Positions 6,410-61,661 of a DNA stretch of 64,000 nt are shown in pieces (the stretch's first letter is position 1; each line of letters starts with the position of its first letter). Origin of the DNA: Clostridia bacterium. GTDB taxonomy: Bacteria; Bacillota; Clostridia; Christensenellales; Aristaeellaceae. The stretch covers positions 15,028 to 79,027 of the forward strand of contig JAFQQT010000027.1 in the NCBI GenBank assembly GCA_017410455.1, written 5' to 3'. The notes below the pieces were generated by a model, which saw only the letters and a list, made by a program, of their open reading frames with translations, did not search any database and was not told the DNA's origin. Both the position numbers and the translations under genes were made by a program.

Positions 6410-7042
6410 ATGGAACGCAATTTTACCGAAGAGATCGACGCCCTGCAGCAGCAGCTGGCCGGGCTGCAGGAAGGCATGCAGCAGCTGATGAAGACCATCG
6501 CCCCCCACCTTCCGTCCTGCGCGATGGGCGGCCCCAACCCCACCATCGGCCATGTGGAGGTCATGGAGAACATGCATCCCAACCCCCATCTGGCCGCCGT
6601 CATGAACGACCTGCAGAGCTCCTGCGGTGAAAACGGCAGCACCGGCCGCATCACCTACCTGGGCGTGTTCGCCTCCGGCGGACGGCAGTCCAACTGGATC
6701 CGGCACGACCTGAACACCGACACCCTCCTGCCCCTGATCGAGAACCGCACGGCGGAGAAGGTGCTGGCCTGCGTGGGCAGCAATGACCGGCTGAACATGC
6801 TGCTGGCGATCCTCCGCAAGCCCCGCACCGTGGCCGAGCTGGTCAGCGACTGCGGCTACTCCTCCACCGGGCAGGTGTATCACCACCTCAAGCCCCTCAT
6901 CGCCGCCGACCTGGTGGCCGAGGATGAGCACCGCCGGGGCAGCTACGTCATCCGCCCCCACCGCGTGCAGGGCGTGATCATGCTGCTGGCGGGCATTGCC
7001 GACCTGGTGGACGGCACGTTCACGCAGGGCGCGGTGGACTGA
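6410..7042 (+). CDS. ArsR-like winged-helix transcriptional regulator with N-terminal coiled segment
   Basis: DRLNMLLAILRKPRTVAELVSDCGYSSTGQVYHHLKPLIAADLV is an ArsR-type HTH. AAAGGAG RBS. Confidence 0.55.
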   Translation: MERNFTEEIDALQQQLAGLQEGMQQLMKTIAPHLPSCAMGGPNPTIGHVEVMENMHPNPHLAAVMNDLQSSCGENGSTGRITYLGVFASGGRQSNWIRHDLNTDTLLPLIENRTAEKVLACVGSNDRLNMLLAILRKPRTVAELVSDCGYSSTGQVYHHLKPLIAADLVAEDEHRRGSYVIRPHRVQGVIMLLAGIADLVDGTFTQGAVD

Positions 7043-7152
7043 ACACGGCATACAACGTAGTGCAAAACGACTCCCTCCGGGGGGCCGTTTCTGTTTCGAT
7101 TGACTTCCCCCATGGTATCCCGTATAATATCCCCATCAGGGAGGTGACTGCC

Positions 7153-9150
7153 ATGCCCAGACGCGACTGGGGCGAAACGCTGGAAACCAAGATCGCCATG
7201 CTGCCCGAATCCCCCGGCTGCTATCTGATGAAGGACGCCGGGGGCACGATCATCTACGTCGGCAAGGCGGTGAATCTCAAGAACCGTGTCCGCAGCTATT
7301 TCCGCGACGCCGACCACACCCCGAAGGTCGCCGCGATGGTCGAAAACATCGCCGACTTCGACGTCCTGCTGTGCGACAGCAACCTGGAGGCCCTGTGCCT
7401 GGAATGCAACCTGATCAAGCGCCACCGCCCTCACTACAACATCCTCCTCAAGGACGACAAGCATTACCCCTACATCTGCGTCAACCTGCGCGAACCTTTC
7501 CCCCGGCTGGAGCTGGCGCGGCGCATGCCTGAAGGCGGCAAGAAGGACGGCATGAAGTACTTCGGCCCTTACATCGGCGCCACCGCCGTCCGCCAGGTGA
7601 TCGAGGCCGTGCGCGGCGTATTCCCCCTGCGCACCTGCCGCAAGGACCTGCCGCTGAAGAACCCCTGCCGCCCCTGCGTCAACTACGAGATCGGCAAATG
7701 CATGGCCCCCTGCGCCGGCAAGTGCACCGAGGAAGCCTACTGGGACATGATGGACGGCGTGCTGGCCTTCCTGGGCGGCGACTACGACCAGGTGCTGAAG
7801 GTGCTGCACAGGGAGATGATGGACTGTGCCGCGCAGATGAAATACGAGCGCGCCGCCGCCGTCCGCGACAAGATCCGCGACATCGAGGGCCTGATGGAGC
7901 GGCAGATCGCCATCCGCACCGAGCGGAGCGAACAGGACGTCATCGCCCTGGCCCAGGACGGGCTGGACGCGATGGTGCACATCTTCTACGTCCGCGGCGG
8001 CCGCATGATCGGCGGCGATCACTTCGCCCTGCCCCGCGAGGGCAGCGAGGCCCCCGGCGAGGTGCTGGCGGGCTTCCTCACCCAGTATTATGAGGATGGC
8101 AACCTCATCCCGCGAAATGTGCTGGTGCAGACCCTGACCGAGGGCGGACGCGAGCAGATGGAGCAATGGCTGCGCCAGCAGAAGGGCGCGGCGGTGACGC
8201 TGCTGACCCCCCAGCGTGGCGAGAAGCACGACCTGATCCTCCTGGCGGCCAAGAACGCCGCCGATGCGCTGGAGAAGCGCAACGCAAAGGCCTCCGTCCG
8301 CCAGGAGCGCACCACCGGCGCCTGCGCTGCCCTGGCCAGGGCTCTGGGCCTGGAAAAGCCGCCCCGGCGCATCGAGGGCTACGACATCTCCAACACCCAG
8401 GGCGTGCTGAGCGTGGCCAGCATGGTCGTTTTCATCGACGGCGTGGCGGCAAAGAAGGAGTACCGGCACTTCCGCATCAAGACGGTGGAGGGCGCAAATG
8501 ACTTCGCGTCCCTCAACGAGGTGCTGGGCCGCCGCTTTGCCCGGGGTCTGCAGGAGAAGGCCGAGCGCGAGGCAGCCGGCCTGCCCGCCATCGGCGGCAA
8601 GTTCAGCGACCTGCCCGACCTGGTGCTCATCGACGGCGGCCCCCAGCAGCTGCGCTTTGCAAGGCAGGCGCTGCTGGATATGGGGGTTCGTGTGAAGGTC
8701 GGGCTTCAGCCCGACGAGCATGTCGATTGCTCGCAATCGACGTGCGAAGCCTGCGACGCGCCGGAAGGCGTGGCGCAGGCCGAAGTAGCCATGTTCGGCC
8801 TGGCGAAGAAGCAGGAGGAGATCTTCCTGCCCGACCGGGAGGAGCCGATCCTGCTGGATCACCACACGCCGGAACTGCATCTGATCCAGCGCGTGCGCGA
8901 CGAGGCCCACCGCTTCTGCATCACTCACCACCGCGGTCTGCGCGGCAAGGCCAGCATCCACAGCCAGCTGGAGGACATCCCCGGCATCGGCCCCAAGCGC
9001 CGCAAGGCCCTGCTGACGAAGCTGGGTTCCATGAAGGCCATCTGCGAGGCCACAGAAGAGCAGCTCCTCGCCGTCCCCGGTATGACGAAGGCGGCTGCGG
9101 AGGCCGTCATGAAGTGGGCAGAGGCCACGGCGAAGAATCATTCCCAATAA
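7153..9150 (+). CDS. uvrC: excinuclease ABC subunit C
   Basis: Track ORF trimmed to MPRRDWG at 7153. GIY-YIG block PGCYLMKDAGGTIIYVGKAVNLKNRVRSYF and C-terminal HhH IPGIGPKRRKALL. Confidence 0.95.
   Translation: MPRRDWGETLETKIAMLPESPGCYLMKDAGGTIIYVGKAVNLKNRVRSYFRDADHTPKVAAMVENIADFDVLLCDSNLEALCLECNLIKRHRPHYNILLKDDKHYPYICVNLREPFPRLELARRMPEGGKKDGMKYFGPYIGATAVRQVIEAVRGVFPLRTCRKDLPLKNPCRPCVNYEIGKCMAPCAGKCTEEAYWDMMDGVLAFLGGDYDQVLKVLHREMMDCAAQMKYERAAAVRDKIRDIEGLMERQIAIRTERSEQDVIALAQDGLDAMVHIFYVRGGRMIGGDHFALPREGSEAPGEVLAGFLTQYYEDGNLIPRNVLVQTLTEGGREQMEQWLRQQKGAAVTLLTPQRGEKHDLILLAAKNAADALEKRNAKASVRQERTTGACAALARALGLEKPPRRIEGYDISNTQGVLSVASMVVFIDGVAAKKEYRHFRIKTVEGANDFASLNEVLGRRFARGLQEKAEREAAGLPAIGGKFSDLPDLVLIDGGPQQLRFARQALLDMGVRVKVGLQPDEHVDCSQSTCEACDAPEGVAQAEVAMFGLAKKQEEIFLPDREEPILLDHHTPELHLIQRVRDEAHRFCITHHRGLRGKASIHSQLEDIPGIGPKRRKALLTKLGSMKAICEATEEQLLAVPGMTKAAAEAVMKWAEATAKNHSQ
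8689..8784 (+). repeat. in-frame three-hairpin intragenic element, copy 1 (inside uvrC, sense)
   Basis: H1 GTCGGGC-TTCA-GCCCGAC at 8698-8715. H2 TCGATTGC-TC-GCAATCGA at 8723-8740. H3 interrupted 13-bp stem at 8749-8780. Encodes RVKVGLQPDEHVDCSQSTCEACDAPEGVAQAE between conserved UvrC blocks. Confidence 0.8.
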
Positions 9151-13534: not shown

Positions 13535-13555
13535 AGAACACGAAAATCGCATCCA

Positions 13556-13639
13556 CCGCTGGGGGTGCGGCACGGGAAACCGCCGCCGCTGAGATACACC
13601 CTTGGAACCTGTGTAGGTCATCCTACCGTAGGGAAGCGG
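13556..13639 (+). promoter_or_regulatory. TPP (THI-box) riboswitch
   Basis: CTGGGGGTGC...CTGAGATACACCC..GGAACCTG...GGTCATCCTACCGTAGGGAAGCGG matches the THI element. A GGCA-ATTCG-TGCC hairpin followed by GTTTT lies just downstream. Confidence 0.85.
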
Positions 13640-13792
13640 GGCAATTCGTGCCGTTTTCGTGTAGATCCGGACTACAGGAAAACCCCGAATGGCCATCCTG
13701 CTTTCCCGCGTACACACGCGGGTTTTTCATTTGCGTAAGAGTCGGGGAAACTCCGGCTTGACAGGATGCGTCGCAAAGGAGGATTTTCACCC

Positions 13793-14589: not shown

Positions 14590-15510
14590 ATGCTTGACAT
14601 CTGCACCCTGGGCACCGGCGGCACCATGCCCCTGCCCGACCGCGCCCTGTCCGCGCTCTACGTCCGCGTGGGCGGGCGGAGCCTGCTCATCGACTGCGGC
14701 GAGGGCACGCAGGTGGGCGTACAGAAGCTCGGCTGGGGCATGCAGTGCATCGACGGCATCCTCATCAGCCACTACCACGCCGACCACGTTTCCGGCCTGC
14801 CGGGGATGCTGCTGGCGCTGACCAAGGCACAGCGCCAAGAGCCGCTGCACATATACGGCCCCGTGGGGCTGCCCTACATCGTGGGCGGGCTGCGGGTCAT
14901 CGCGCCGCAATTGTCCTTCCCCATCGTGCTGCACGAACTGAAGGAGGATCTGTCGCCCTTCCACATCATCGGGCTGGAGGTCACGCCCTTCCCGCTGGAT
15001 CACGGCATGCCCTGCCTGGGGTACCGGCTGCACCTGCCCCGCGCGGCGGTCTTTGACGCCGAAAAGGCGCGGGCGGCCGGCGTCCCCGTCCCCCTGTGGA
15101 AGCGCCTGCAAAAGGGCGAAACCGTCACCGAGAACGGCCGCACCTTCACCCCGGCGGACGTGATGGGCGCGCCCCGCCCCGGCATCACCGTCCTGTGCGC
15201 CACGGACACCCGCCCCGTGGACGCCATCCCCGACCTGGGCTTCCGCTGCGACATGATGATCCTGGAGGGCATGTACGGCGCGGAGGAGAAGTACCCCCTC
15301 GCCCTCAAGAACCACCACATGCTCTTCCGCGAGGCCGCCGCCCTGGCCCGGGACGCCGAAGCCGGTCAGCTGGTGCTGACCCACTTCAGCACCAGCATCG
15401 AAGCGCCGGAGGATTTCCTGCCCAACGCCACGGCCATCTTCCCGGACACCGTCTGCGCCACAGACGGGCAGACGTGGACGCTGCGCTACCCACAGGGCGA
15501 TAGTAATTAA
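14590..15510 (+). CDS. rnz: ribonuclease Z / MBL-fold hydrolase
   Basis: Trimmed to MLDICTLGTGG at 14590 (AGGAGG RBS). ISHYHADHVSG motif. Length 306 aa. Confidence 0.7.
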   Translation: MLDICTLGTGGTMPLPDRALSALYVRVGGRSLLIDCGEGTQVGVQKLGWGMQCIDGILISHYHADHVSGLPGMLLALTKAQRQEPLHIYGPVGLPYIVGGLRVIAPQLSFPIVLHELKEDLSPFHIIGLEVTPFPLDHGMPCLGYRLHLPRAAVFDAEKARAAGVPVPLWKRLQKGETVTENGRTFTPADVMGAPRPGITVLCATDTRPVDAIPDLGFRCDMMILEGMYGAEEKYPLALKNHHMLFREAAALARDAEAGQLVLTHFSTSIEAPEDFLPNATAIFPDTVCATDGQTWTLRYPQGDSN

Positions 15511-15621
15511 TCATGAATTATGAATTAGGAATGTATCCTGCGGCACGGCCTTTACAAGCCGGCACAACACTCCAAATTCATCATTCATAATTCATAATTC
15601 ATAATTCATAAGTCATAATTA
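15505..15621. repeat. AT-rich module pair forming a long inverted repeat
   Basis: AATTAATCATGAATTATGAATTAGGAATG at 15505-15533 faces CCAAATTCATCATTCATAATTCATAATTCATAATTCATAAGTCATAATT at 15572-15621. Confidence 0.8.
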
Positions 15622-15637
15622 ACCCAAGGGGGGTTCC

Positions 15638-16231
15638 ATGGAACAGTTCAACCACAAGCTCACCCAGTTCTTCTCCCACCTCTGGCCGGCGGAGGAGAAG
15701 GTGCTCGTCTTTGGCGAGGGCAACGCCGACCATCCGGCCATCATGCTCATCGGCGAAGCCCCCGGCGAGCAGGAGACGCTGCAGCGCCGCCCCTTCGTGG
15801 GCAAGGCCGGGAAGAACCTGGACGGCTTCCTGCAGGTCGTGGGGCTGCAGCGGGAGGCGCTGTACATCACCAACGTGGTCAAGATCCGCCCGACGAAGGT
15901 CAGCGAAAAGGGCCGCCTGTCGAACCGCCCGCCGAATAAGGAAGAGCTGGCACTGTTCACGCCCTTCCTGATGGAGGAGATATGGCGGGTGCAGCCCCGG
16001 CTCATCGTCACCCTGGGCAACACGCCGCTCAAGGCGCTCATGGGCGCGAAGGCCGTCATCGGCAGCCTCCACGGCAGCATGCAGACGGCCACTGTCGCCC
16101 ATGAAAAGCAGTCCGCCGACTTCCCCATCTTCCCCCTGTACCACCCGGCCAGCATCATCTATAACCGGGCGCTGCAGGCGGTGTACCAGGCGGATCTGCT
16201 GGCGCTGAAGGCCCTGCTGGCAGAGGGGTGA
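15638..16231 (+). CDS. uracil-DNA glycosylase, family 4
   Basis: MLIGEAPGEQE..RPFVGKAG and the C-terminal LYHPASII. Confidence 0.85.
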   Translation: MEQFNHKLTQFFSHLWPAEEKVLVFGEGNADHPAIMLIGEAPGEQETLQRRPFVGKAGKNLDGFLQVVGLQREALYITNVVKIRPTKVSEKGRLSNRPPNKEELALFTPFLMEEIWRVQPRLIVTLGNTPLKALMGAKAVIGSLHGSMQTATVAHEKQSADFPIFPLYHPASIIYNRALQAVYQADLLALKALLAEG

Positions 16232-16700
16232 CGAATACCAGCGCATCCGCAGGGGCGACTATCAGCCACCCGCATGCCGCATCACCCGATTGTCGCTAAG
16301 GGGCGCACAACGCCAGGCTGCTGCGCATCAGCGCTGCCCTCTGACGACCCACATCGCCGCAGGACACCTCATCACCGCCTGCGGGCGGAGTTTCCCCTCA
16401 AGGGGAAGCCGGGGAAGAATCCGTGCTGGGCAGCTGAAGGCTCTCCCTCAGGGAGAGCTGTCCCGAAGGCACCGAGAGGGGGCTCCCGGCAACGCGCAAC
16501 CATGCCACAGTCCCACGCGGGCGCAAGCATGACCGAAGGCACTCTACTCAATCGCGAGCCGGGTCCAGCGTCACGCTGGTGTCATTTCAGACGCGAAAAT
16601 GTATCTTTGGAGCAAAGCCTATGGCCAAACCCTGTGGCCTGTGCTATACTGCAAGCGTGGTAAGAACCCGGGAAACCCCCGGTAACCCTTGAAGGAAGGA
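16232..16700 (+). repeat. composite GC-rich intergenic repeat (contains the C module and the CTATCAG hairpin)
   Basis: GGCGACTATCAGCCACC hairpin near 16253. CACCTCATCACCGCCTGCGGGCGGAGTTTCCCCTCAAGGGGAAGCCGGGG at 16365-16414. Confidence 0.75.
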
Positions 16701-37196: not shown

Positions 37197-37436
37197 TTAC
37201 GCCTTGCCTTTCACATGGTCGTTGAAGAACGCTTCGACCGTCTCGGGGGTGACGGAGTGGACCACGTCATCCACCATGACGCACACGCCCTTCTGGCACT
37301 GGCCCATGCAGAAGGCGCCGCCCAGGTCGACCCGATCGGCCAGGCCGTTGTCCTCGATCAGCTTCTTCAGCCCCGTCACCACCTGACGGGAGCCCTTGAT
37401 GTGGCAGGAGCTGCCGATACAAACCGAAATCCTCAT
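37197..37436 (-). CDS. thioredoxin-like [2Fe-2S] ferredoxin, paralogue
   Basis: IGSSCHIKGS ... CMGQCQ Cys pattern. Paralogue of the downstream gene. Confidence 0.7.
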   Translation of the reverse strand: MRISVCIGSSCHIKGSRQVVTGLKKLIEDNGLADRVDLGGAFCMGQCQKGVCVMVDDVVHSVTPETVEAFFNDHVKGKA

Positions 37437-37528
37437 GTGTGATCCTCCTCGTTATCCTGACGCGCCGGGGATGCCTCCCCTGCGCCTGATTTTTCTCCCG
37501 CCCGCCGTTCGCACAGCGAGCCTGTTCT

Positions 37529-37557
37529 ATTATGCCACAAAACGACGGGTTTGGCAA
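37529..37557 (-). promoter_or_regulatory. candidate promoter of the ferredoxin-HydS-PP2C-hydrogenase operon
   Basis: Minus-sense TTGCCA, 17-nt spacer, CATAAT. Confidence 0.45.
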
Positions 37558-37827
37558 TAGTTTAACAATCTTCCGCGGAAATAATTGGGGAGGCAGGGGC
37601 TTGTTGTCTGTGCCGGTGTGGGGTGCCCCAGCGGCAACCCGCACACAGGACAAGCCGCAAAGGATGCACACAACCCCTTCCGCCCTGGCGAAGGCCGCTT
37701 CCTGCACGAACATTCATTCGCACAATACCATCATACCACACCTCCCCTGAAAACGCAAGCTAATCTTTGCTACTTCGTGATAGTCGGTTATGGAAACATA
37801 AACGCGAACAAATTTTCGCAAAAGGGC

Positions 37828-37856
37828 TTGCATTTTCCATCGGGATGTGCTATGAT
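37828..37856 (+). promoter_or_regulatory. candidate plus-strand promoter reading into the tandem repeat array
   Basis: TTGCAT (37828-37833), 17-nt spacer, TATGAT (37851-37856). No RBS or ORF follows. Confidence 0.4.
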
Positions 37857-37895
37857 GATCCTGGGTACAGCGAACGCCCGTTCGTTCACCCAACA

Positions 37896-38355
37896 CCTGA
37901 CAGGCCGATCCCTCCGGGGGTGATACCTGATCAGCCCCGATCGTGGGGGGTAAGGGGGGCAGGACAGAGCGCAGCGATGGCCTGACCGATCCCACCGGAG
38001 GTGATAAGGCACAGGCCGAGCGCAGCGACAGCCTGATCAGGCCTCCCCCATCAAAGGGGAAAGGGCACAGGCTGAGCGCAGCGATGGCCTGATCAGGCCT
38101 CCCCAATCAAAGGGGAACAGGCGCAGGCCAAGCGCAGCGATGGCCTGATCAGGTCTCCCCAATCAAAGGGGGAAAGGGCACAGGCCGAGCGCAGCGATGG
38201 CCCGATCAGGCCTCCCCAATCAAAGGGGAAAGGGCGCAGGCCAAGCGCAGCGATGGCCCACCCCCACCAACGGTGGCAAGGCAAGCCCATCGCAGCGCCC
38301 CCATCCCATCCCCACCCGATCGGTGGAAAGGGGTACCAGCCGAGCTCCGCAATGG
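37896..38355. repeat. tandem array of about 9 units of ~56 bp
   Basis: Units start at 37896, 37926, 37981, 38032, 38088, 38143, 38201, 38257 and ~38300. Core unit: CCTGATCAGGCCTCCCCAATCAAAGGGGAAAGGGCACAGGCCGAGCGCAGCGATGG. Confidence 0.85.
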
Positions 38356-38369
38356 CCCCGTCCCACAAA

Positions 38370-38404
38370 CCAAATTCCTGATCCATAATTCCTAATTCAT
38401 AATT
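38370..38404 (-). repeat. AT-rich module copy
   Basis: Minus-sense AATTATGAATTAGGAATTATGGATCAGGAATTTGG, directly after the pepM terminator. Confidence 0.8.
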
Positions 38405-38433
38405 AAAACGGGCTTGCCCCGTTGGACAAGCCC
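38405..38433 (-). terminator. rho-independent terminator of the phosphonate operon
   Basis: Minus-sense GGGCTTG-TCCAACGGGG-CAAGCCC followed by GTTTTAATT. Confidence 0.6.
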
Positions 38434-38443
38434 GACCTCCCCC

Positions 38444-39736
38444 TCACTGATTGGGCAGCAGCGTCAGGATCTCTTTAATGGACATGCACAGCTGATCAGC
38501 CTCGCGGCTGCGGCCGTTCTCCAGGATCGACCGGGCCGTGGCCTGCATGGCCGGGAAGGCGCTGCGGATCAGGTGGTTGGCGTGGATGACGACGTTCACC
38601 CCGTGGGCGGCCAGCTCGGCCTCGGTGGCGCCGTTGTAGGTCGTGGGCACGACGATGATGGGCGTCTTCGGGTCCACCCGGCGGAAGGCGTCGCAGAAGG
38701 TGTACACCTCGTCCGGGGTCTTCGACTTGGAGTGGATCATGATGCCGTCGGCCCCGGCCTTCACATAGGCGTGGCAGCGGGTCAGGGCGTCCTCCATCCC
38801 CTGCTCCAGGATCAGGCTCTCGCAGCGGGCGATGATCATGAAGTCGCGGGTCTTCCGGGCGGCCTTGCCGGCGGCGATCTTGTGGCAGAAGTCCTCGATG
38901 CTGTCCTGCACCTGCCCCACGCCCGCGCCAAAGAGGCTGTTCTTTTTCAGGCCCTTCTTGTCCTCGATGATGATGGCGGAGATGCCCATGCGCTCCAGGG
39001 TCTGCACGTTGTATACGAAGTGCTCCACCAGGCCGCCGGTGTCCCCGTCGAGGATAATGGGCTTGGTGGTGACCTCCATGATCTCCTCCAGCGTGCGCAG
39101 GCGGCTGGTCATGTCCACCAGCTCGATGTCAGGCTTGCCCTTGGCGGTGGAGTCGCACAGGCTGCTGACCCACATGGCGTCAAACTGGCGGCGGCCTGCG
39201 GGGGTCTCCACGGCGGTCTTTTCCACGATCAGGCCGGTGATGCCGTTGTGGGCCTCGCACACGCTCAGGCAGGGCTTGCAGCTCAGCAGGCGGCGCAGGC
39301 GGCTCCGGCGGGTCTCCGGCAGGGACAGCAGCGCGTCCAGCGCGGAGAGGGTCTCCTCCGTGGGCGTGTGCGTGTAGGGGAACTCGACGAGCTGTCCGCC
39401 CCACCGGGCCAGCACCTCGATCACCCTCTGGCGGATGTTGGCCTGGTAGCCCACGAGCCAGTCATCCCCGTGGACGACGACGTCCGGCTTCAGCCGGATG
39501 AGGATATCGGTGTAGTCGAGGGTCTCCTGCACCACCACGCGGCTGACGTATTTCAGGCTCTCGAACATCGCCACGCGCTCCTCCAGCGGCAGCAGCGGGT
39601 AATGCTTGTAGCTGGCCACAACCTCGTCCGTCAGGATGCCGACGGTCACTTCGCCCAGCGCCGCGGCCTTCTTGAGGATGGAGAGGTGGCCGTTGTGGAT
39701 GATGTCGGTGGAAAAGCAAATGTAGACCTGCTTCAT
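38444..39736 (-). CDS. aepX: cytidylyltransferase-PEP mutase fusion protein
   Basis: N-terminal HxGH nucleotidyltransferase motif STDIIHNGH. C-terminal PEP mutase motifs ILDGDTGG and IIIEDKKGLKKNS. Confidence 0.85.
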   Translation of the reverse strand: MKQVYICFSTDIIHNGHLSILKKAAALGEVTVGILTDEVVASYKHYPLLPLEERVAMFESLKYVSRVVVQETLDYTDILIRLKPDVVVHGDDWLVGYQANIRQRVIEVLARWGGQLVEFPYTHTPTEETLSALDALLSLPETRRSRLRRLLSCKPCLSVCEAHNGITGLIVEKTAVETPAGRRQFDAMWVSSLCDSTAKGKPDIELVDMTSRLRTLEEIMEVTTKPIILDGDTGGLVEHFVYNVQTLERMGISAIIIEDKKGLKKNSLFGAGVGQVQDSIEDFCHKIAAGKAARKTRDFMIIARCESLILEQGMEDALTRCHAYVKAGADGIMIHSKSKTPDEVYTFCDAFRRVDPKTPIIVVPTTYNGATEAELAAHGVNVVIHANHLIRSAFPAMQATARSILENGRSREADQLCMSIKEILTLLPNQ

Positions 39737-40548
39737 GCCAGTACCTCCTTGGCAAAGCGGCGGCTGACGGCTTCCTTGTCAGCCTGGTTGTCGATCTCGG
39801 CGCAGAGGAGCCCCGCCACATCCAGCGGGCGGATGGGGATCTCCCGCCACGCGGCGTTGAAGGCGTTCTCGGCGTAGACGCGGTCGTTCCCGGCGGATTC
39901 GAAGGCGGCGATCTCCTGCAGCCAGCGGTCCACCTGAGCAGCCCTGAGCAGATAGGCGGGCTGCAATTCGACGCAGTCCGGGCCGAAGACGTTCACGCCC
40001 ACCTCGCAGACGAGGCCATCGGCAATGCGCCCCTTGAAGTCCTTTTCGGGCAGGGGTAGCGTGCTGTCGACGGTCACGGCGGATACGGGGGACGCGGCCA
40101 GGCGGCGCATCACCTCCGGGTGCATCACCAGGTCGCCGTGCAGGCTGATGACATCCTGACCAGCAAGGAGTTCGCGCGCCAGGTGAACGGAGTGGATGTA
40201 ATTGGTCTCCCAGAAGCGCGGATTGTGCACGAAGCGGAAGCGGATGGGCGTGTCCAGCGAGCGGAGGTAGCCTTCCAGCATGTCGCTCAGGTGCCCGGTG
40301 GTGACCACGGCCTCGGTGACGCCGACGGCTTCCAGGCACTTCAGCTGCCAGGAGATGATGGTCTCCGGGAGTGGCCCAAGGTCGGACGCATGTCCGACTG
40401 GCGACAGCGATTCCTTGGAATCGCCGAGCGTAGCCAGCGGCGGAGCTTGCCTCCGGTGATGGCCGAGTACCGTCATGCATTTGGGGTGTTCGCGGGTCTC
40501 GTCCCCCATGCGGGAGCCGAGGCCGGAATTGAGAAGCAGTGCGATCAT
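39733..40548 (-). CDS. LicC-like nucleotidyl(cytidylyl)transferase
   Basis: Start chosen at MIALLLNSGLGSRMG (GGAGAA RBS). The stop overlaps the pepM-fusion start (ATGA). Confidence 0.7.
   Translation of the reverse strand: MIALLLNSGLGSRMGDETREHPKCMTVLGHHRRQAPPLATLGDSKESLSPVGHASDLGPLPETIISWQLKCLEAVGVTEAVVTTGHLSDMLEGYLRSLDTPIRFRFVHNPRFWETNYIHSVHLARELLAGQDVISLHGDLVMHPEVMRRLAASPVSAVTVDSTLPLPEKDFKGRIADGLVCEVGVNVFGPDCVELQPAYLLRAAQVDRWLQEIAAFESAGNDRVYAENAFNAAWREIPIRPLDVAGLLCAEIDNQADKEAVSRRFAKEVLA
40381..40455 (+). repeat. three-hairpin intragenic element, copy 4 (inside the LicC-like gene, antisense to it)
   Basis: H1 GTCGGAC-GCAT-GTCCGAC at 40381-40398. H2 GCGATTCC-TT-GGAATCGC at 40407-40424. H3 CGGAG-CTTGC-CTCCG at 40441-40455. 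Confidence 0.75.
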
Positions 40549-40599
40549 AGCGTTCTCCATCAGGGTATATATTGGGATTAAGGTATATTTCAGGATCGT

Positions 40600-40881
40600 C
40601 TCCAGTGCTGCCGCAGGGGCGGGTGTCAGCCCCCTTCGCCGCTGGTTCACGCCGCCGCAGGACACCTCATCACCGCCTGCGGGCGGAGCTTCCCCTCAAG
40701 GGGAAGCCGGGGAGGCGCCGGGCAGGGCGTTCCATTGCGGGTTTGCGTTGGTGCGGCATGCGGGAGGACTGCAGCATAGCAGACCAGCCCAAGCCTCCCT
40801 CCCCGAGGGAGGTAGATTCCTTCGCGGCTTGAAAAGCCGGGTAGGAAGACGGAAGGGGGCCTCCTGCAGGCCTCGCCGGGC
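40600..40881 (+). repeat. composite GC-rich intergenic repeat inside the phosphonate operon
   Basis: C/D module at 40663-40767, then the CCTCCCTCCCCGAGGGAGG hairpin and others. Confidence 0.75.
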
Positions 40882-42099
40882 TCACTGCTGCAGGAAGGCC
40901 ATCAGCGCGTCGCGGTTCTGCTGCGGGGTGGTGGTGGGGCGGCCGAGGTCAGCCCGCGCACCCACGGCGCACATCACCTCGATGAAGGCCAGCTCCCCGG
41001 CGGACAGGGCCGCATCGATGGCATTGAGCAGGGTTTCGGGGCTGTTCGCGCGGCAGACGCTGCGGTAGCCCGCGGCCATGGCCAGGGCGCACAGGTCGAG
41101 GCCGCCCTCGCACACGGGCATGCCGCCGACGGTCTCATGGGCGCCATTGTTGATCACGACATGCACAAGGTTGCGGGGCTGCCGCTGGCCGATGACCGCC
41201 ATCGCGCCCAGGTGCATCAGGGCTGCGCCGTCGCCATCCAGGCACCAGATGCGGCGCTCGGGCTGCTCCATGGCAATGCCCAGGGCGATCATGGAGGCGT
41301 GGCCCATGCTGCCCACGGTGAGGAAGTCGCGCTCGTGGCCCTGATGTGCCGCCTCCCGCAGCTCGAACAGCTCGCGGCTGAGCTTGCCTGTGGTAGACAC
41401 GAAGGCGTCGCGGCTCCCCGCCAGCCGGGCGATGATCCCCACGGCCTCCTCGCGGGTCATGGCGTGGGCGTTGCCGTAGACGGGCTTGGCGGAGCAGGTG
41501 AGCGCGCCCTTCTTCACCACGATGGCCGCGGTGCGGTTGGCAGCCAGGTGGGCGCGGATGCCCGCGAAGGCCGCGTCGAAGTCGGCCTCGGTCATGGCCT
41601 TGTCCAGCACCATGTACGGCACATCCAGCAGCTCCAGCTGGCTGAGGGTCACCTGCCCCTGCTTGACATGCTGCGGCTCGTCATCAGTCGCCCTCGTCAC
41701 GCTTTGCGCGCCGGGGGTACAGGCCATCAAATCCGAGGATTTGACAGCCTTAGTCAGCGGTGAACCGCTGACCTCCGTCACGGGTTCGCCGCGCCAGCCG
41801 ACGACCAGCAGGCAGGGCATGGCGTAGACCTGAGCATCCATCAGCGAGGCCAGGGGGTTGACGGCGTTGCCCAGGCCGGAATTCTGCATGTAGCACAGCG
41901 CGGGCCGCCCGGTGGCCAGGAAATGCCCGGCGCACAGGCCGATGGCGTTGCCCTCGTTGGCGGCGACGATGTGCTTCTCCTTCACGCCCAGGGTGGCATA
42001 GAGCGTATCGCACAGCCCCTTGAGCTGCGAGTCCGGCACGCCGGTGAAGAAGTCGATGCCCGCATCACGGCAGGCGGCAAGCAGGTGCTGTGCGTCCAT
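40882..42099 (-). CDS. aepY: phosphonopyruvate decarboxylase (ThDP enzyme)
   Basis: ThDP motif GDGAALMHLGAMA..NNGAHETVGG. VVGWRGEP...DDEPQHVKQG block. Confidence 0.85.
   Translation of the reverse strand: MDAQHLLAACRDAGIDFFTGVPDSQLKGLCDTLYATLGVKEKHIVAANEGNAIGLCAGHFLATGRPALCYMQNSGLGNAVNPLASLMDAQVYAMPCLLVVGWRGEPVTEVSGSPLTKAVKSSDLMACTPGAQSVTRATDDEPQHVKQGQVTLSQLELLDVPYMVLDKAMTEADFDAAFAGIRAHLAANRTAAIVVKKGALTCSAKPVYGNAHAMTREEAVGIIARLAGSRDAFVSTTGKLSRELFELREAAHQGHERDFLTVGSMGHASMIALGIAMEQPERRIWCLDGDGAALMHLGAMAVIGQRQPRNLVHVVINNGAHETVGGMPVCEGGLDLCALAMAAGYRSVCRANSPETLLNAIDAALSAGELAFIEVMCAVGARADLGRPTTTPQQNRDALMAFLQQ
41689..41784 (-). repeat. in-frame three-hairpin intragenic element, copy 3 (inside aepY, sense)
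   Basis: Sense H1 GTCAGCGG-TTCA-CCGCTGAC (41772-41753). Sense H2 TCAAATCC-TC-GGATTTGA (41744-41727). Encodes VTEVSGSPLTKAVKSSDLMACTPGAQSVTRAT. Confidence 0.75.
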
Positions 42100-45270: not shown

Positions 45271-46401
45271 TCACTCGATGAACATGGCGTCGCCGAAGGA
45301 GAAGAAGCGGTAGCGCTCCTCCACCGCCTCGCGGTAGACGTCCAGGGCCGTTTCCCGGCCCATGAAGGCGCTCACCAGCATCAGGAGCGTGCTCTGCGGC
45401 AGGTGGAAGTTGGTAATCAGCGCATCCACGGCCTTGATCTTCTTGCCGGGGTAGATGAAGATGGCCGTGTCCCCCGCGCCGGGGTGGATGACGCCGTCCT
45501 CGGTGGCGACGGTCTCCAGCGTCCGCACAGAGGTGGTGCCCACGCAGATGATGCGCCCGCCCGCCGCGCGGATGGCGTTGAGCGTGTCCGCCGCCTCCTG
45601 GCTGACGTGGTAGTACTCCGAGTGCATCACATGGGTGTCCACATCCTCCACGGTGACGGGGCGGAAGGTGCCCAGCCCCACATGCAGGGTCACGGGCACG
45701 ATGGTCACGCCCTTCTGCTTCACCTTCTCCAGCAGCTCCGGGGTGAAGTGCAGACCGGCGGTGGGCGCAGCGGCAGAGCCCTCGTTCTTCGCATAGACGG
45801 TCTGGTAGCGGCTGCGGTCCTCCAGCTTCTCGTGGATGTAGGGCGGCAGGGGCATCTCGCCCAGCCTGTCCAGGATCTCCTCGAAAACGCATCCGGCCAT
45901 CCCCGGGACAAGCCCGGTGCTGGCTTCACCCGGCGATTGCGAGCAATCGCTCGGGCTCGTCGGGCTTTGCCCGACCTGATCCCACATGAAGCGCACGATG
46001 CGCCCGCCGATCTCCGGCACGGAGGACAGCACCTCGCACCGGAGCAGGCCATCGCCGAAGACGCACACCGCGCCGGGCTTGAGCCTGCGGCCCGGCTTGA
46101 CCAGCGCCTCCCAGTCCGTGGCGTTGATGCGCCTGAGCAGCAGCACCTCCACCGGGACGCTGTGGCCCTGGCTGTCGACGCCCTCCTTCACGCCCAGCAG
46201 ACGCGCCGGGATCACCTTCGTCTCGTTGATGACCAGCGCATCACCGGCGTTCAGGTAGTCGAGGATATCGTGGAAATGGCGATGCTCCCGGCTGCCGTCG
46301 CTCCGGTGGACGACCAGCATGCGGGAGTGGTCACGGGGCTCCACGGGGGTCTGGGCAATCAGCTCCTCGGGGAGGTTGTAGTCAAAATCAGCGGTTCTCA
46401 T
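45271..46401 (-). CDS. queA: S-adenosylmethionine:tRNA ribosyltransferase-isomerase
   Basis: [19 protein letters not shown] and [10 protein letters not shown] motifs. Confidence 0.95.
45900..45981 (-). repeat. in-frame three-hairpin intragenic element, copy 2 (inside queA, sense)
   Basis: Sense H1 GTCGGGC-AAA-GCCCGAC (45975-45959). Sense H2 GCGATTGC-TC-GCAATCGC (45950-45933). Sense H3 CCGGG-CTTGT-CCCGG (45917-45903). Encodes [28 protein letters not shown]. Confidence 0.8.
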
Positions 46402-48948: not shown

Positions 48949-51489
48949 TTATGCCTTGTTTACCTTGCAGAGTTTGCGGTAGCTGATGTATATGTTGATC
49001 AGGATGACGACAATAGGGAGGACATAGGCGACGATGGGGTAGGCAGCGTACTCCGCTTGCATTTTCGCGTTCGTTTTCGTTGGGTCTGTCGTAATTACCT
49101 GCACAATACCGACCTGACAATTAAAGACCACATGCCATATATGCGGGGCGATGGCGTACATGTTCCGGAAAAAGAAGATACACACAAGGCTGCCTATCAT
49201 CGCAAGACTGACCAAAGCATAGAGCCTATCATCCTCGATGAGTGACCTACCGAAGAGCACTGCTGCCAGCGCAAGCAGCGTTACGCCTTCGCTATACAGC
49301 TTCGATCGCAGAGAACCCTGAGGAAACAACTGGCTACATAAGAATGCGACAGTTCCAATAAACACCGGATATTTCAGCGAGCTCACCGGGTCTGAATACG
49401 CGAAAACAATGCCGTACAGTGCTGCTGCGGTAAGCAACGGACAGAGCCACATATCGCGTTTTGCGTTGGTTTTCCACCGTGCTATAACCTCCTGCTGCAG
49501 GATCTGCAGCTCATGGCATCGTTGTGCACTGACTTCCGTCAGCATCTTCTTCCACCAGTCTTCGCCGAACCAATCCGCTGGCACCTTCGCCAGGTCAGAG
49601 ATATGGGCTTCTGCCATGTGCTTGAGGAGTTCGCGCTCAGGGTGGGATTCAAGCTCATTACACGCTTGAAGTGCGTCTTTCCACTTTCTCCTTGCAAGCA
49701 AGGCGTTGATGTCGTCGCGTTGTCTCTGCAGGACGCGCTCTTTTTCCAGCTGTGCCCGACGGGCTGCTTCTGCAGCCTGCTTCTGACGGATTCTCTCAGC
49801 TTCAGCTGCCCGTTCCTCCGCCTTCTTCCGGCGCAGTTCCTGCGAAGCCTTCAGCCACCTGTCCATCTCCTCCTGCCGCGACAGGTTCGCATACCAGTAA
49901 GCATTCTGCCAGTGTTTACTGTTCTCAAATGGGACTTCAAGCTGCATCAGTTCTTCCAGAGAACGCAGTTCAAACTCAGCAAGGAGGCGCAGCAGATGAC
50001 CCTGGAACTCCCGCGAGAATTCGCGAATCATCTCATCCGCCCTGCTTTTCGCTTCAACCCAATTCATTTCACGGAGCGCAGCTTCCGTTTCACGCTTCAT
50101 GCTTTGCAGCTTTTGCTCGCGCATCTCCCGTTCCTGACGCTCCCGCTCAAGGCGTTCGGCCTCACGCCTGCGCTGCTCTTCCGCTTCCCGGCGCTTGCGT
50201 TCTTCTTCCCGCCTGCGACGCTCCGCTTCCTGACGGCGACGCTCCTCTTCCTGCCTGCGACGCTCTTCCGCTTCCCGCCGCTTGCGTTCCTCCTCCTGCC
50301 TGCGTGCCTCCAGCGAAGCATCGAGGATTCCCTGCCATCCAGCCCGCTCAACCTCGCTGGCGTTCTCCATGGCACGCTTCCACTCTCTCGTGCTCTCAAA
50401 GGGTTCCATGCATCCGCGCAGCTCGTCCGGCGTTCGCAGGTGCTTCATCGCCAGCAGCTTGTACAGGTGCGCCGCAGCGCAGGAGGGGTACACGTCGATC
50501 AGGCCGTCCGCCAGATTACGGGCAGCATCCCAGTTGGCGTCATCCAGCCGGTACAGCACGCCCTTGAGCCGCTCCTGCACATCCGGGTTGACCTTCGGCT
50601 GGTCAGCTTTCGTTTCCCTGATTTCCCGCTCCAGCACCTTCAGGAGCGGGCTGAACCAGTCGTCTCCCTTACGCACGCGAGCACTCTGCTTCCCGCTCAG
50701 TTCGCCGGGCATGGCGTAAGGATTTTCCAGGCACTGGTCATACAGCACGGGGATCAGCAGCGCGTCCCTGCGCTGGGCAAAGCGCGACCATTCGCTATGC
50801 ACCCAGGGGGTGGTCAGGTTCTCCGGATCGCCGCAGACCACCAGCATCACCCGGGCGGAATAGATGGCATGGAAGATCTGCGCCTCGTAACTCGCACCCA
50901 GCTTGTCGTTCAGCGTGACGTCGGCAAAGAACACCCGATAGTTCTTTTGCAGCAGCAGGGTGTACAGCTTCTGCGCGTAGGTATATTCGGCGGCGTATGT
51001 TCCCTTTTCCTTGCCGCTCTGCTTGTAGCACAGGAAGATGTCCCAGGGCTCCGTCCGGATCTTCCGGACCTCCTCCTGGATCTCGTGCAGGTACTGCCCC
51101 TGCGCCTCGTAGTGCTTCCGGGTGTCCTCGTCCGCCAGTTCACGGGCGCGCTGGTAGTCCGGGTCTTCCAGCACATCCTCCTCACGGTAGAAGTGGATGG
51201 TCAGCTTGCCCTTCACCACCTCCACGCCGTATTTGCACAGCACCAGACCCCACAGGGCCGTGTGCTCCTCCGGGTTCCGGTGCAGGATCTCCCGGTAGTC
51301 CGCCGCCGCGTTGACAAAGTCACATTTGACGCGCCGGGCATTGGCCAGTTCCAGCAGTTCAAGGGTCTCCCCCTCCACCTTCGGCCTGCCATGGATACGG
51401 CCGCAGCCAATGCAGGGGAACGTCGTCCGCTCCAGCGGGTAGTCGAACCGGTAGCCACATTTATCGCATCTGTATGCCTGAGTTCGCAT
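48949..51489 (-). CDS. Zn-ribbon / TIR-domain / long Glu-Arg coiled-coil / multi-pass membrane protein
   Basis: CDKCG..CIGCG zinc ribbon. TIR block WDIFLCYKQ...VMLVVCG...TPWVHSEWSRF. ERKRREAEERRRQEEERRRQ coiled-coil. About 5 C-terminal TM helices. GAAGGAGG RBS 36 nt after the argH stop. Confidence 0.8.
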   Translation of the reverse strand: MRTQAYRCDKCGYRFDYPLERTTFPCIGCGRIHGRPKVEGETLELLELANARRVKCDFVNAAADYREILHRNPEEHTALWGLVLCKYGVEVVKGKLTIHFYREEDVLEDPDYQRARELADEDTRKHYEAQGQYLHEIQEEVRKIRTEPWDIFLCYKQSGKEKGTYAAEYTYAQKLYTLLLQKNYRVFFADVTLNDKLGASYEAQIFHAIYSARVMLVVCGDPENLTTPWVHSEWSRFAQRRDALLIPVLYDQCLENPYAMPGELSGKQSARVRKGDDWFSPLLKVLEREIRETKADQPKVNPDVQERLKGVLYRLDDANWDAARNLADGLIDVYPSCAAAHLYKLLAMKHLRTPDELRGCMEPFESTREWKRAMENASEVERAGWQGILDASLEARRQEEERKRREAEERRRQEEERRRQEAERRRREEERKRREAEEQRRREAERLERERQEREMREQKLQSMKRETEAALREMNWVEAKSRADEMIREFSREFQGHLLRLLAEFELRSLEELMQLEVPFENSKHWQNAYWYANLSRQEEMDRWLKASQELRRKKAEERAAEAERIRQKQAAEAARRAQLEKERVLQRQRDDINALLARRKWKDALQACNELESHPERELLKHMAEAHISDLAKVPADWFGEDWWKKMLTEVSAQRCHELQILQQEVIARWKTNAKRDMWLCPLLTAAALYGIVFAYSDPVSSLKYPVFIGTVAFLCSQLFPQGSLRSKLYSEGVTLLALAAVLFGRSLIEDDRLYALVSLAMIGSLVCIFFFRNMYAIAPHIWHVVFNCQVGIVQVITTDPTKTNAKMQAEYAAYPIVAYVLPIVVILINIYISYRKLCKVNKA

Positions 51490-56781: not shown

Positions 56782-56877
56782 GTGTGTTGTCCCCTTTCAA
56801 ACGAAAAATGGCCGCCCGTTTTTCAACAGACAGCTCCGGGGAACGACGCAGACACTGATACCCGATGGTACATATCG

Positions 56878-56971
56878 CCTGCTCCGTCCTTTTGCCTGAG
56901 AGATTCCACCGATGCAGCCGCACCGGCTTTGCACCTTCGGCACTCACCTGTGTGAGGTTCTCCGGAGTTCC
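56878..56971 (-). promoter_or_regulatory. glycine riboswitch, single aptamer
   Basis: Minus-sense CCGGAGAACC...GTGCCGAAGGTGCAAAGCC...GAATCTCTCAGGCAAAAGGACGGAG. Confidence 0.8.
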
Positions 56972-57023
56972 CTCCCCCCGCGGGCTGTGTTGGTTCCTGC
57001 GGATATCGTCGGGAATGGTCATT

Positions 57024-60072: not shown

Positions 60073-60567
60073 ATGATCGTTCTTGGCATCGACCCCGGCT
60101 ACGCGCTGATGGGCTGGGGCGTGGTGGAATCCAACGGCAGCCATATGAAGCTGCTGGGCTATGGCTGCATCGAAACGAAAGCCGGAACCCCCATGCAGCA
60201 CCGCCTGCGCACCCTCCAATTAGGCGTGCGCGACCTGACCCTCATGTACCGCCCGGACGAGGTGGCCTTCGAGGAACTGTTCTTCGCGCAGAACGTCACC
60301 ACCGCCCTCATGGTCGGCGCGGCCCGCGGAGCCGCCATCATCGCCGCCGCCGAATACACCGAGAACCTCTACGAATACACCCCCATGCAGATCAAGCAGG
60401 CCATCACCGGCTACGGCAAGGCCGACAAGAAGCAGATCCAGCAGATGGTCAGAATGCTCCTGAACATGGACTCCCTCCCCAAACCCGACGACGCCGCCGA
60501 CGCCATCGCCTGCGCCATCACCCACTGCCAGGCCGGTCGGCTCAAGGAGCAGTTCCGCATGAAGTGA
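60073..60567 (+). CDS. ruvC: crossover junction endodeoxyribonuclease RuvC
   Basis: Trimmed to MIVLGIDPGYALMGWG (GGGAGA RBS). Confidence 0.9.
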   Translation: MIVLGIDPGYALMGWGVVESNGSHMKLLGYGCIETKAGTPMQHRLRTLQLGVRDLTLMYRPDEVAFEELFFAQNVTTALMVGAARGAAIIAAAEYTENLYEYTPMQIKQAITGYGKADKKQIQQMVRMLLNMDSLPKPDDAADAIACAITHCQAGRLKEQFRMK

Positions 60568-61046
60568 CCAGGGGCCTCCGGCGGGCAGGGGCGCTGCCCC
60601 TGCACCCTGCGAAGGGACTTCGTCCCTTTCGAAACCCATTCTCGCGATTTTGTTTTGGGTTCTCCTGGAGCTGGACTCGCGTGGGAGTTGGGCGGGGGTG
60701 CGCGTCGCACGTGGCACGGAGGGTGCCACGCGCGGGCACGGCTCGCAGAGGGCGAGCCGCGCTGGTGTTGCGCTTTGCCAAGGCTCCAGGGGCCATTAAC
60801 ATTCCTCGTCGCTTTCGCCTTCGGCGAACTCCCCACTGGGGAGCCGCTCCCGCGGAATGCCCCTTTGACTCCAGCAGGGGGACTTCGTCCCCCTGCACCC
60901 CCTCGCGGCTGCGCCGCGTGCCCACCCGCCCACCCCGGGGGCTATCGCCCCCGACCCCCATGGACGCTGCTCGCTTCGCTGCGCTGCTGCTTTCCCGTGC
61001 CCACACAATCAATTCCGAATTCCGCATTCCGAATTCGTATTCCGGA
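60568..61046. repeat. GC-rich hairpin train plus an AT-rich-like module between ruvC and ruvA
   Basis: Hairpins CAGGGG-CGCT-GCCCCTG, AAGGGAC-TTC-GTCCCTT, GTGGCAC-GGAGG-GTGCCAC, CGGCTCG..CGAGCCG, GGGGGAC-TTC-GTCCCCC and GGGGG-CTATC-GCCCCC. AATTCCGAATTCCGCATTCCGAATTC at 61010-61035. Confidence 0.75.
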
Positions 61047-61055
61047 GGAATACCA

Positions 61056-61661
61056 ATGTACGCATTCATCGAAGGTCAGGTCTGCGAAAAGACCAACAAC
61101 CAGCTCGTGCTGCTGGCCGGCGGCGTAGGGTATCTGCTGAGCTGCTCCATGGCGACGCTGAACGCCGCGCCGGTCACCGGCGAAACGATGCGCTGCCATA
61201 CCTGGCTGTCTGTGCGCGAGGACGCCATGGAGCTCTTCGGGTTCGCCACGAAGGAGGAGAAGCAGCTCTTCCTCATGCTCACCGGCGTCACCGGCGTGGG
61301 GCCCAAGATGGCCCTGGCGCTGCTGTCCACGCTGAGCGTGCAGGATCTGCGCCTGGCCATCATCATGGAGGACGAGAAGACCATCGCCCGTGCCCCCGGC
61401 GTTGGCAAGAAGATCGCCCAGCGCATCGCCCTGGAGCTCAAGGACAAGCTGGGGCAGTTCAGCGTGTCCTCCGGCGCAGCGGCCAGCCCGGTGGCGGCCG
61501 TCCCTGCAGCGGCGGACAACTTCGCCCAGGCCATCGCCGGCCTGACCGCCCTGGGCTACACCCCCGGTGAGGCCCGCGACGCACTCAGCAAGGTCGAGAA
61601 CAAATCCGCCCCCGTGGACGAGCTCCTGCGCCTGGCGCTGCGCTCCATGGCGGGAATGTAA
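61056..61661 (+). CDS. ruvA: Holliday junction DNA helicase RuvA
   Basis: My own start call at MYAFIEGQV, inside the spurious 584-aa track ORF. GVTGVGPKMALALL HhH. Confidence 0.95.
   Translation: MYAFIEGQVCEKTNNQLVLLAGGVGYLLSCSMATLNAAPVTGETMRCHTWLSVREDAMELFGFATKEEKQLFLMLTGVTGVGPKMALALLSTLSVQDLRLAIIMEDEKTIARAPGVGKKIAQRIALELKDKLGQFSVSSGAAASPVAAVPAAADNFAQAIAGLTALGYTPGEARDALSKVENKSAPVDELLRLALRSMAGM

Follow-up and report, generated by a model that had tools for sequence, protein, structure and literature searches.

The gene for phosphonopyruvate decarboxylase (ppd) of an uncultured gut bacterium of the class Clostridia probably carries, in frame, an old copy, now diverged, of a dispersed repeat that is small, structured and non-coding. 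The gene lies in a stretch of 64,000 nt from contig JAFQQT010000027.1 (GenBank assembly GCA_017410455.1, positions 15,028 to 79,027), which is designated here as the window. The source organism is represented by an uncultured Clostridia metagenome-assembled genome (MAG), with animal and human gut samples as its origin and Aristaeellaceae among its relatives. The repeat is 87–90 nt long and has three hairpins, designated H1, H2 and H3. Four copies were found in the window with the covariance model R1, each with E ≤ 1 × 10−13, and the ppd copy, matched at 41680-41778, is the most diverged of the four. Comparison of orthologous ppd genes supports a constraint on the nucleic-acid structure of this insert, not on its peptide.

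The ppd open reading frame (ORF) encodes a two-domain thiamine-diphosphate enzyme. The nearest solved structures are the alpha and beta subunits of phosphonopyruvate decarboxylase (PDB 9iz3), and the database relatives of the product bear the same name. Among the best 120 orthologues the site of the insert is filled in 7, with protein lengths of 405-407 aa, and empty in 113, with lengths of 375-381 aa, most orthologues having 375-377 aa. In the alignment, the long proteins have exactly 30 additional residues between WRGEP and DEPQH, whereas in the short ones the block is contiguous as EP-GVK-DEPQH, also in proteins with 92-94% identity to that of the window. A preliminary description of this DNA, made from the sequence alone, had taken the WRGEP/DEPQH block to be contiguous in this enzyme family and split here, and the Ppd alignment agrees: the loop is not general. 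The insert had been put at about 32 aa, and this is to be corrected to 30 aa (90 nt). At the DNA level the difference consists of the 90 nt and three changed junction codons. The features of the gene and of its insert are as follows.

40882..42099, minus strand: ppd, the host gene, from the ORF list; 405 aa with the insert; Pfam TPP_enzyme_N and TPP_enzyme_C.
41683..41772, minus strand: the ppd copy of the element, diverged subtype, GTC...GAT, 90 nt in frame; a 30-codon gap against empty orthologues; translated VSGSPLTKAVKSSDLMACTPGAQSVTRATD.
41773..41781, minus strand: junction codons GTG ACG GAG, in place of GGC GTG AAG (GVK) in empty alleles; GGAG corresponds to the family's conserved 5′ tag.
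41753..41772, minus strand: H1 of the ppd copy, GTCAGCGG-TTCA-CCGCTGAC, 8 bp.
41722..41749, minus strand: H2, with the core TCAAATCC-TC-GGATTTGA (41727-41744) and a GGCTG/TGGCC extension to about 12-13 bp including G.T pairs.
41687..41720, minus strand: H3, imperfect, CCCCCGG CGCGC AAA GCGTG ACGAGGG, from folds, alignment and consensus structure.

In an AlphaFold model built on a 46-sequence alignment, the enzyme is folded around the insert, and residues 108-146 have predicted local distance difference test (pLDDT) values of 26-29 and are without secondary structure. The 30-aa insert is predicted to be a disordered loop leading from strand 96-102 to helix 152-157.

On the minus strand, 41772..41727 reads GTCAGCGG-TTCA-CCGCTGAC TAAGGCTG TCAAATCC-TC-GGATTTGA, with the GTC in frame with the 405-aa ORF. 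The preliminary description quoted this sequence, its frame and its peptide correctly, and most of its comparison with the copy in uvrC stands. Three positions of the 5′ arm of H2 differ from the H2 of uvrC (TCGATTGC/GCAATCGA, 8723-8740), G>A, T>A and G>C, each matched in the 3′ arm, and H1 is re-paired with a different sequence. The two copies do not have the same 8-nt spacer: that of uvrC is GAGCATG, 7 nt, and an extra T had entered the quotation. The reading frame is shared as described, the ppd copy having an H1 longer by 1 bp and a spacer longer by 1 nt, a net difference of +3 nt. The loops were said to be kept. This holds only partly: the H2 loop is TC or TT in most copies, and the H1 loop is AAA, GCAT, GCGA, GTC or CTTG in other copies. 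Even among ppd orthologues the H1 loop is TTCA in the window (41757-41760) and in the related locus L005, and TGAA in L003 and L245-L247. Since TGAA is the reverse complement of TTCA, this is an inversion of the H1 loop, an event at the DNA level. The earlier account missed the third hairpin, the antisense, intergenic and tandem copies, and the dispersed nature of the element, which resembles repetitive extragenic palindromes (REPs) and Rickettsia palindromic elements (RPEs).

The native unit of the family is about 89 nt long. It opens with a 5′ tag G(G/T)AG and GTC-H1-GAC; a spacer leads to H2, which has a TY loop, and a linker resembling GCGAAGCC leads to H3 and a terminal GGCCGA. The conserved unpaired motifs are 5′ G(G/T)AG-GTC, GAC-GAGCGACA, CGAGCGAAGCC and 3′ GGCCGA. 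H1 has 7-8 bp and a loop of 3-4 nt, and H2 has 8 bp and a 2-nt TY loop. The H3 of ppd and the GCC...GGC H3 of the remaining copies are homologous; that of ppd ends in GGGCGA versus GGCCGA in the family. The 5′ tetramer is GGAG in the ppd copy, in the copy L095a and in both spacer copies of L003, GTAG in two of the roughly 13 copies (both in L248), and AGAG, GAAG, TCAG, CAAG or CTGG in the remaining ones. Pairs of perfect hairpins, each of at least 7 bp and close together, were found at 6 loci of the window, against a mean of 0.27 and a maximum of 1 in 30 dinucleotide shuffles, so the pattern is not due to chance.

The three other copies in the window reside in uvrC, in queA and in the nucleotidyltransferase gene that neighbours ppd.

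8698..8784, plus strand: uvrC copy, sense, master-like, 87 nt; host gene 7060..9150, plus strand.
40381..40470, plus strand: copy in a nucleotidyltransferase (NTP_transf_3) gene, antisense, 90 nt in frame; host gene 39733..40665, minus strand.
45889..45975, minus strand: queA copy, sense, 87 nt; host gene 45271..46401, minus strand.

The proteins show these insertions. The UvrC product has about 31 additional residues compared with PDB 3c65, from MGVR to VAMFGLAK, in the LGLDVPLAGLAK segment. The alignment of QueA to PDB 1yy3 is broken at Bacillus subtilis residue 141, and the QueA of relatives has 347 aa. The nucleotidyltransferase has 241 aa in relatives and 271 aa in the species of the window. 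The copies seen inside genes are stop-free and have lengths divisible by three, and most reading frames of most copies are stop-free. The native 89-nt unit is not a multiple of three and the gene-resident copies have 87, 87, 90 and 90 nt, which looks like a survival filter within genes.

That the ppd copy belongs to this family, as had been proposed, was confirmed with a second covariance model, R2, built from eight copies with all ppd copies excluded. R2 matches the ppd copy of the window at 41681-41778 with 39.9 bits (E = 3.9 × 10−6) and the ppd copies of L003 and L247 with 41.6 bits; overall these three score 40-42 bits with E about 1 × 10−6, while the master-like copies score 79-97 bits. 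The ppd copy is thus a genuine, strongly diverged member of the family.

About 13 distinct copies were collected in all. Besides the four in the 64-kb window, the 21-kb locus L003 has three, including intergenic ones at 6930-7027 and 2003-2102, and copies were found in four other MAGs or contigs: L006, L095 (two), L248 (two) and L131. Head-to-tail pairs with a period of 89 nt are present in L095 (4247-4424) and L248 (270-440, minus strand). On either side of the L095 pair, the host sequence forms an inverted repeat, CATACGTTGG ... CCAACGTATG. The L248 units have a short H3, the GTAG tag, and an extra hairpin, GCCGCTTTCG-CGCGT-CGAAAGCGGC, which is complete only past the last unit.

The wider searches added few copies. 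A scan of genome contigs with the 16-nt H2 core gave 119 loci, nearly all of them chance palindromes in unrelated phyla, with L006 and L095 as the real ones. A scan of metagenome contigs with the H1 plus GAGC pattern gave 120 loci, essentially all chance GC-rich hairpins, and L131 alone was real. The scan of viral contigs for the element returned no match. A six-frame peptide query gave only three matches, all of them spurious ORFs over intergenic tandem copies, and a query with the ppd-type peptide gave none, the sole match in the representative library (P0124) being a repeat-protein artefact. No copy matched an Rfam family at the gathering threshold, and permissive Rfam scans gave noise only.

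The stems of the family are maintained by compensatory change. RNAalifold applied to eight copies gave three helices, with compensatory change in 14 of 27 pairs. When 12 copies were aligned to the model, 91.5% of the pair cells were paired, versus 29-37% with the 3′ partners slid by 1-3 columns; five of these 12 come from ppd orthologues, and the alignment is one fitted to the model. Double changes were present in 17 of the 27 pairs, and the observed covariation score was reached by none of 500 shuffles. This strong covariation across the family bears out what had been proposed for the ppd stems. G.T and A.C mismatches are about equally frequent and show no strand asymmetry, so the data are silent on the folding strand and on RNA versus DNA; an assignment of strand-specific folding from these counts was rejected for the same reason.

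Constraint in place was analyzed with six insert-bearing ppd genes, those of the window, L005, L003, L247, L245 and L246. Their DNA identity is 79-97% outside the insert and 86-100% inside, and between the window and L003 the identity at third codon positions is 94% inside the insert and 68% outside. In the 99-nt segment, 4 of 68 paired columns are variable versus 13 of 31 unpaired columns (Fisher P = 3.3 × 10−5). Over the whole gene, 30% of columns and 59% of third positions are variable; against this background, only 1 of 23 paired third-codon positions varies (binomial P = 4 × 10−8). The changed sites in the insert are the junction codons, the H1 loop inversion, apical pairs, loop or bulge positions of H3, and one C>U that keeps a G.U pair. 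Most of the substitutions are non-synonymous (T>V/A, S>E, G>V, S>F, S>A, P>L, S>G, D>A/N). The stems are near-invariant at silent sites while loops and junctions are free, which indicates purifying selection on a folded nucleic acid. The earlier suggestion that selection acts on structure rather than on the protein is in agreement with this pattern, and the element translations do differ between host genes, as it had noted for ppd, uvrC and queA.

The insert is not just a younger stretch within an older gene. L245 and L246, which form the closest pair, have 4 differences in the 99 positions of the insert and are as divergent inside it (96% identity) as outside (97.4%). The 30 nt of left flank contain 6 differences between the window and L003, and no recent recombination tract is therefore visible.

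GVK at the empty site is common to distant orthologues and is thus ancestral, so the empty alleles are not excision products. The altered junction is common to all filled alleles, which indicates a single origin. Filled and empty alleles are mixed among close relatives (the window gene has 88.5% DNA identity to the filled L005 and 88.1% to the empty L001), pointing to an old polymorphism or to allele exchange. The species of the window (L250) and the more distant filled-ppd species (L003) were both assembled from sample ERZ27256804; the lineages thus co-occur, and alleles could pass between them. L001, L003 and L005 have empty queA and nucleotidyltransferase sites, and both sites are filled in 10 of 10 contigs of the window's species. 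Such patchy occupancy, seen at the ppd site too, is what mobile DNA would be expected to give. Judged from this distribution, these two copies are younger than the ppd copy, being absent from the three relatives and fixed in the species. The uvrC copy is the exception, given that uvrC of L003 (gene 14732-16663) has a 21-nt in-frame remnant, GTCGGGCATGGGGCTGATGAA, at about 16400-16440, the site of the 87-nt element in the window. This remnant indicates that resident copies can decay by internal in-frame deletion.

Comparison of the filled and empty queA, nucleotidyltransferase and ppd sites gave no direct repeat, the empty alleles coming from diverged relatives with variable loops. Tentatively, insertion directly 3′ of NAG without duplication would fit the insert lengths, as far as the empty sites of such relatives can serve as a reference. 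A 9-nt target duplication at ppd and a duplication of GAT at queA were tried and rejected, as their lengths do not suit the frame.

The explanation preferred here is that of a dispersed repeat, of which ppd holds an old copy. The family would have spread at the DNA level in one lineage of uncultured Clostridia from the gut, and its likely mover would be a trans-acting enzyme recognizing the hairpins when single-stranded, in the manner proposed for REPs and the REP-associated tyrosine transposases (RAYTs). Such a hairpin-recognizing single-strand transposase is put forward by analogy. Copies land in intergenic DNA, where some form head-to-tail arrays, and also, in both orientations, within genes. 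After insertion in ppd, the three stems have remained almost unchanged across at least six orthologues, while the loops, the junction codons and the surrounding gene diverged.

Several observations weigh against this explanation. Neither a transposase, RAYTs included, nor another mobilizing gene was found among 20 scanned genes of the window or among the called genes of related loci, and neither a target-site duplication nor a convincing terminal inverted repeat was seen in filled versus empty sites and in alignments. The GTAG tag typical of REPs is limited to the two L248 copies, with GGAG or NAG elsewhere. The number of distinct copies is small, and the two large DNA scans yielded mostly chance matches. 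Model and peptide searches found no second copy of the ppd subtype, so divergence in place is inseparable from the arrival of a subfamily that already differed. The conservation of one resident copy across species is not explained by a purely selfish element, and the reduction of the uvrC copy in L003 to its 21-nt remnant indicates that maintenance in place is not general.

The conservation of the ppd stems could also reflect exaptation, which is possible although rather unlikely. The ppd copy, and perhaps others, would now be a host-functional cis element in the coding sequence, acting either as folded mRNA (stability, processing or translation pausing) or as a protein-binding DNA hairpin or cruciform, and serving the phosphonate cluster. 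The stems are invariant at synonymous sites while gene DNA identity falls to 79% and the fast sites of the insert evolve at the gene rate or above; ppd and the nucleotidyltransferase gene, adjacent genes of one pathway, each carry a copy; and the C>U change retains its G.U pair. However, most Ppd orthologues, including those that are 92-94% identical, work without the insert. The antisense orientation of the nucleotidyltransferase copy makes a shared mRNA-level role unlikely, the uvrC copy was let decay in L003, and G.T and A.C mismatches lack strand asymmetry. A fuller version, with the ppd hairpins exapted under their own purifying selection and the family being a REP-like system of Bacillota with an undescribed mobilizing enzyme, has a similarly low probability.

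Conservation without any selection is improbable. The insert would be younger than the gene through recombination or repeated site-specific insertion, or the palindromes would correct themselves by template switching between their arms. Filled and empty alleles are indeed intermixed in the Ppd tree (88.5% and 88.1% for L005 and L001, as above), two sites of the insert show homoplasy between orthologues (CCC/CTC, and G/A at the apex of H2), and the inversion of the H1 loop from TTCA to TGAA is a hairpin event at the DNA level. Against youth by recombination stand the 6 differences in 30 nt of left flank between the window and L003, in which no tract is visible, and the identical altered junction codons of all filled alleles, which indicate one origin. 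The near-identical L245 and L246 inserts, already different at 4 of 99 positions, are not frozen by youth, and the model and peptide searches gave no further copy of the ppd subtype as a possible donor. Self-correction predicts compensatory double changes among the orthologues, and there are none in the core stems. Least probable of all is conservation driven by the peptide, with the 30 aa as a functional segment of Ppd and the hairpins incidental. It is true that the insert is open and in frame in 6 of 6 orthologues and adjoins the conserved WRGEP/DEPQH motifs. Its third positions, however, are conserved as strongly as the other two, and the pattern tracks pairing and not codon position; the observed changes mostly alter amino acids, the predicted loop has its low pLDDT of 26-29 and no secondary structure, and the element in other genes encodes unrelated peptides.

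Several other classes of element were considered and ruled out. The element is too short for an intein or an intron, and the frame stays open. An integron attC site would have R″/R′ core sites, which are absent, and the copies are located outside cassette arrays. The arm lengths do not match a tRNA-like cloverleaf, and acceptor pairing is missing. For a terminator, the T run expected after the hairpins is lacking, and H1 and H3 are unlike each other, which does not suit IS200/IS605-type ends.

Other features of the window were also recorded. Rfam matches at gathering level are a TPP riboswitch at 13551-13651 (plus strand, 63.2 bits) and a glycine riboswitch at 56874-56975 (minus strand, 52 bits). 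The spacer 60567-61076, behind the gene that ends at 60567, contains, especially at 60585-60629 and 60710-60760, two further pairs of perfect 7-8 bp hairpins, 7 nt apart within a pair, with the loops GCT/TTC and GGAGG/AGAGG. These give no match to the element models and are not repeated in the window; one AAGGGACTTCGTCCC-like 16-mer is found again in L003, close to an element copy, at 2209-2224. The region 37436-38444, between the phosphoenolpyruvate mutase gene and two small 2Fe-2S thioredoxin-like genes, is about 1 kb without a convincing ORF. Its GC content falls to 0.47, its plus strand has many more A than T, with an AT skew of 0.34-0.56 at 37900-38400, and the gap is found in all strains of the window's species. 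An ORF of 846 aa at 48949-51489 (minus strand) has a third-position GC of 0.71 versus about 0.9 in its neighbours, is without a recorded Pfam family and may be of horizontal origin.

The inserts add about 30 residues to proteins and could pass for lineage-specific protein features. They can also push domain matches under the threshold. The nucleotidyltransferase with the antisense 90-nt insert scores 22.7 bits for NTP_transf_3 against a Pfam cutoff of 27; the 271-aa protein has no precomputed Pfam match in any strain, whereas its 241-aa relatives have one.

The family is new, being without a match in Rfam and with no published description found, but elements of this kind are already known, as intragenic REPs and RPEs. 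REPs are 20-40-bp single palindromes or inverted dimers, with a stem of 5-13 bp, a short loop and an unpaired terminal GTAG in more than 90% of members; they are dispersed in many copies per genome and associated with a RAYT (Y1/HUH) transposase gene of that genome (PMC3733652). In tagged REPs the hairpin bears GTAG or CGTC at one end; they form subfamilies whose stems differ by complementary changes, have TY loops and occur in clusters (Di Nocera et al. 2013, PMC3733652), and intragenic REPs are units or groups wholly inside ORFs, where they code for 20-30 aa and frequently occupy uvr genes or other genes of repair (PMC3733652). The host described here belongs to Clostridia (Bacillota), which is absent from that survey (PMC3733652). 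The present element shares with REPs the short GC-rich hairpins and a short unpaired end tag, and its H1 and H2 fall within the stem and loop sizes of REPs. It also shares subfamilies distinguished by complementary stem residues, a TY loop (in H2), clusters or tandem groups, and a uvr location (uvrC). It differs in being a fixed three-hairpin composite of about 89 nt and in its tag, which is mostly GGAG or NAG and not the GTAG of most REPs.

Bacterial interspersed mosaic elements (BIMEs) belong to enterobacteria and lie outside genes; inverted REP pairs make up their mosaic units, which combine REP-type hairpins with other conserved motifs. Compared by description only, and with sequence similarity not to be expected, they resemble the present family in having mosaic units that can be repeated head to tail in spacers. 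Prokaryotic MITEs (miniature transposable elements with inverted repeats) such as Coxiella QMITE1, Correia and ERIC are small non-coding multi-copy structured elements, at times fused in frame to ORFs (PMC5896051, PMC10969869). In contrast to MITEs, the terminal inverted repeat seen in the alignments here is just an imperfect TCGGSC / GSCCGA, with about 5 of 6 nt, and no related autonomous insertion sequence is known for the element.

RPEs are the classic in-frame gene inserts, and RPE-1 is about 150 bp long, according to the summary of Ogata et al. 2000 in PMC10969869. To the extent of that summary, RPEs and the present family are alike in being palindromic in-frame inserts in unrelated housekeeping genes, with a translation compatible with the protein fold and retention at orthologous sites in relatives. 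The insert is in frame in uvrC and queA, with 87 nt each, and in ppd and the nucleotidyltransferase gene, with 90 nt each, and the loop in Ppd is predicted to be disordered. By the same summary, the differences are the phylum, the length (87-90 nt against about 150 bp in RPE-1), and the presence here of copies in both gene orientations and as tandem spacer arrays; this comparison is one of behaviour, not of sequence. The present family adds a clean and statistically well-supported case of structured "selfish" repeats in frame in housekeeping genes. Earlier cases came mainly from Rickettsia and several phyla other than Bacillota, while this one is from a gut lineage of uncultured Clostridia. 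What sets the ppd copy apart is that orthologous filled alleles reveal selection on stems at silent codon positions in a coding region, and these alleles make the distinction between tolerated and role-bearing inserts directly testable.

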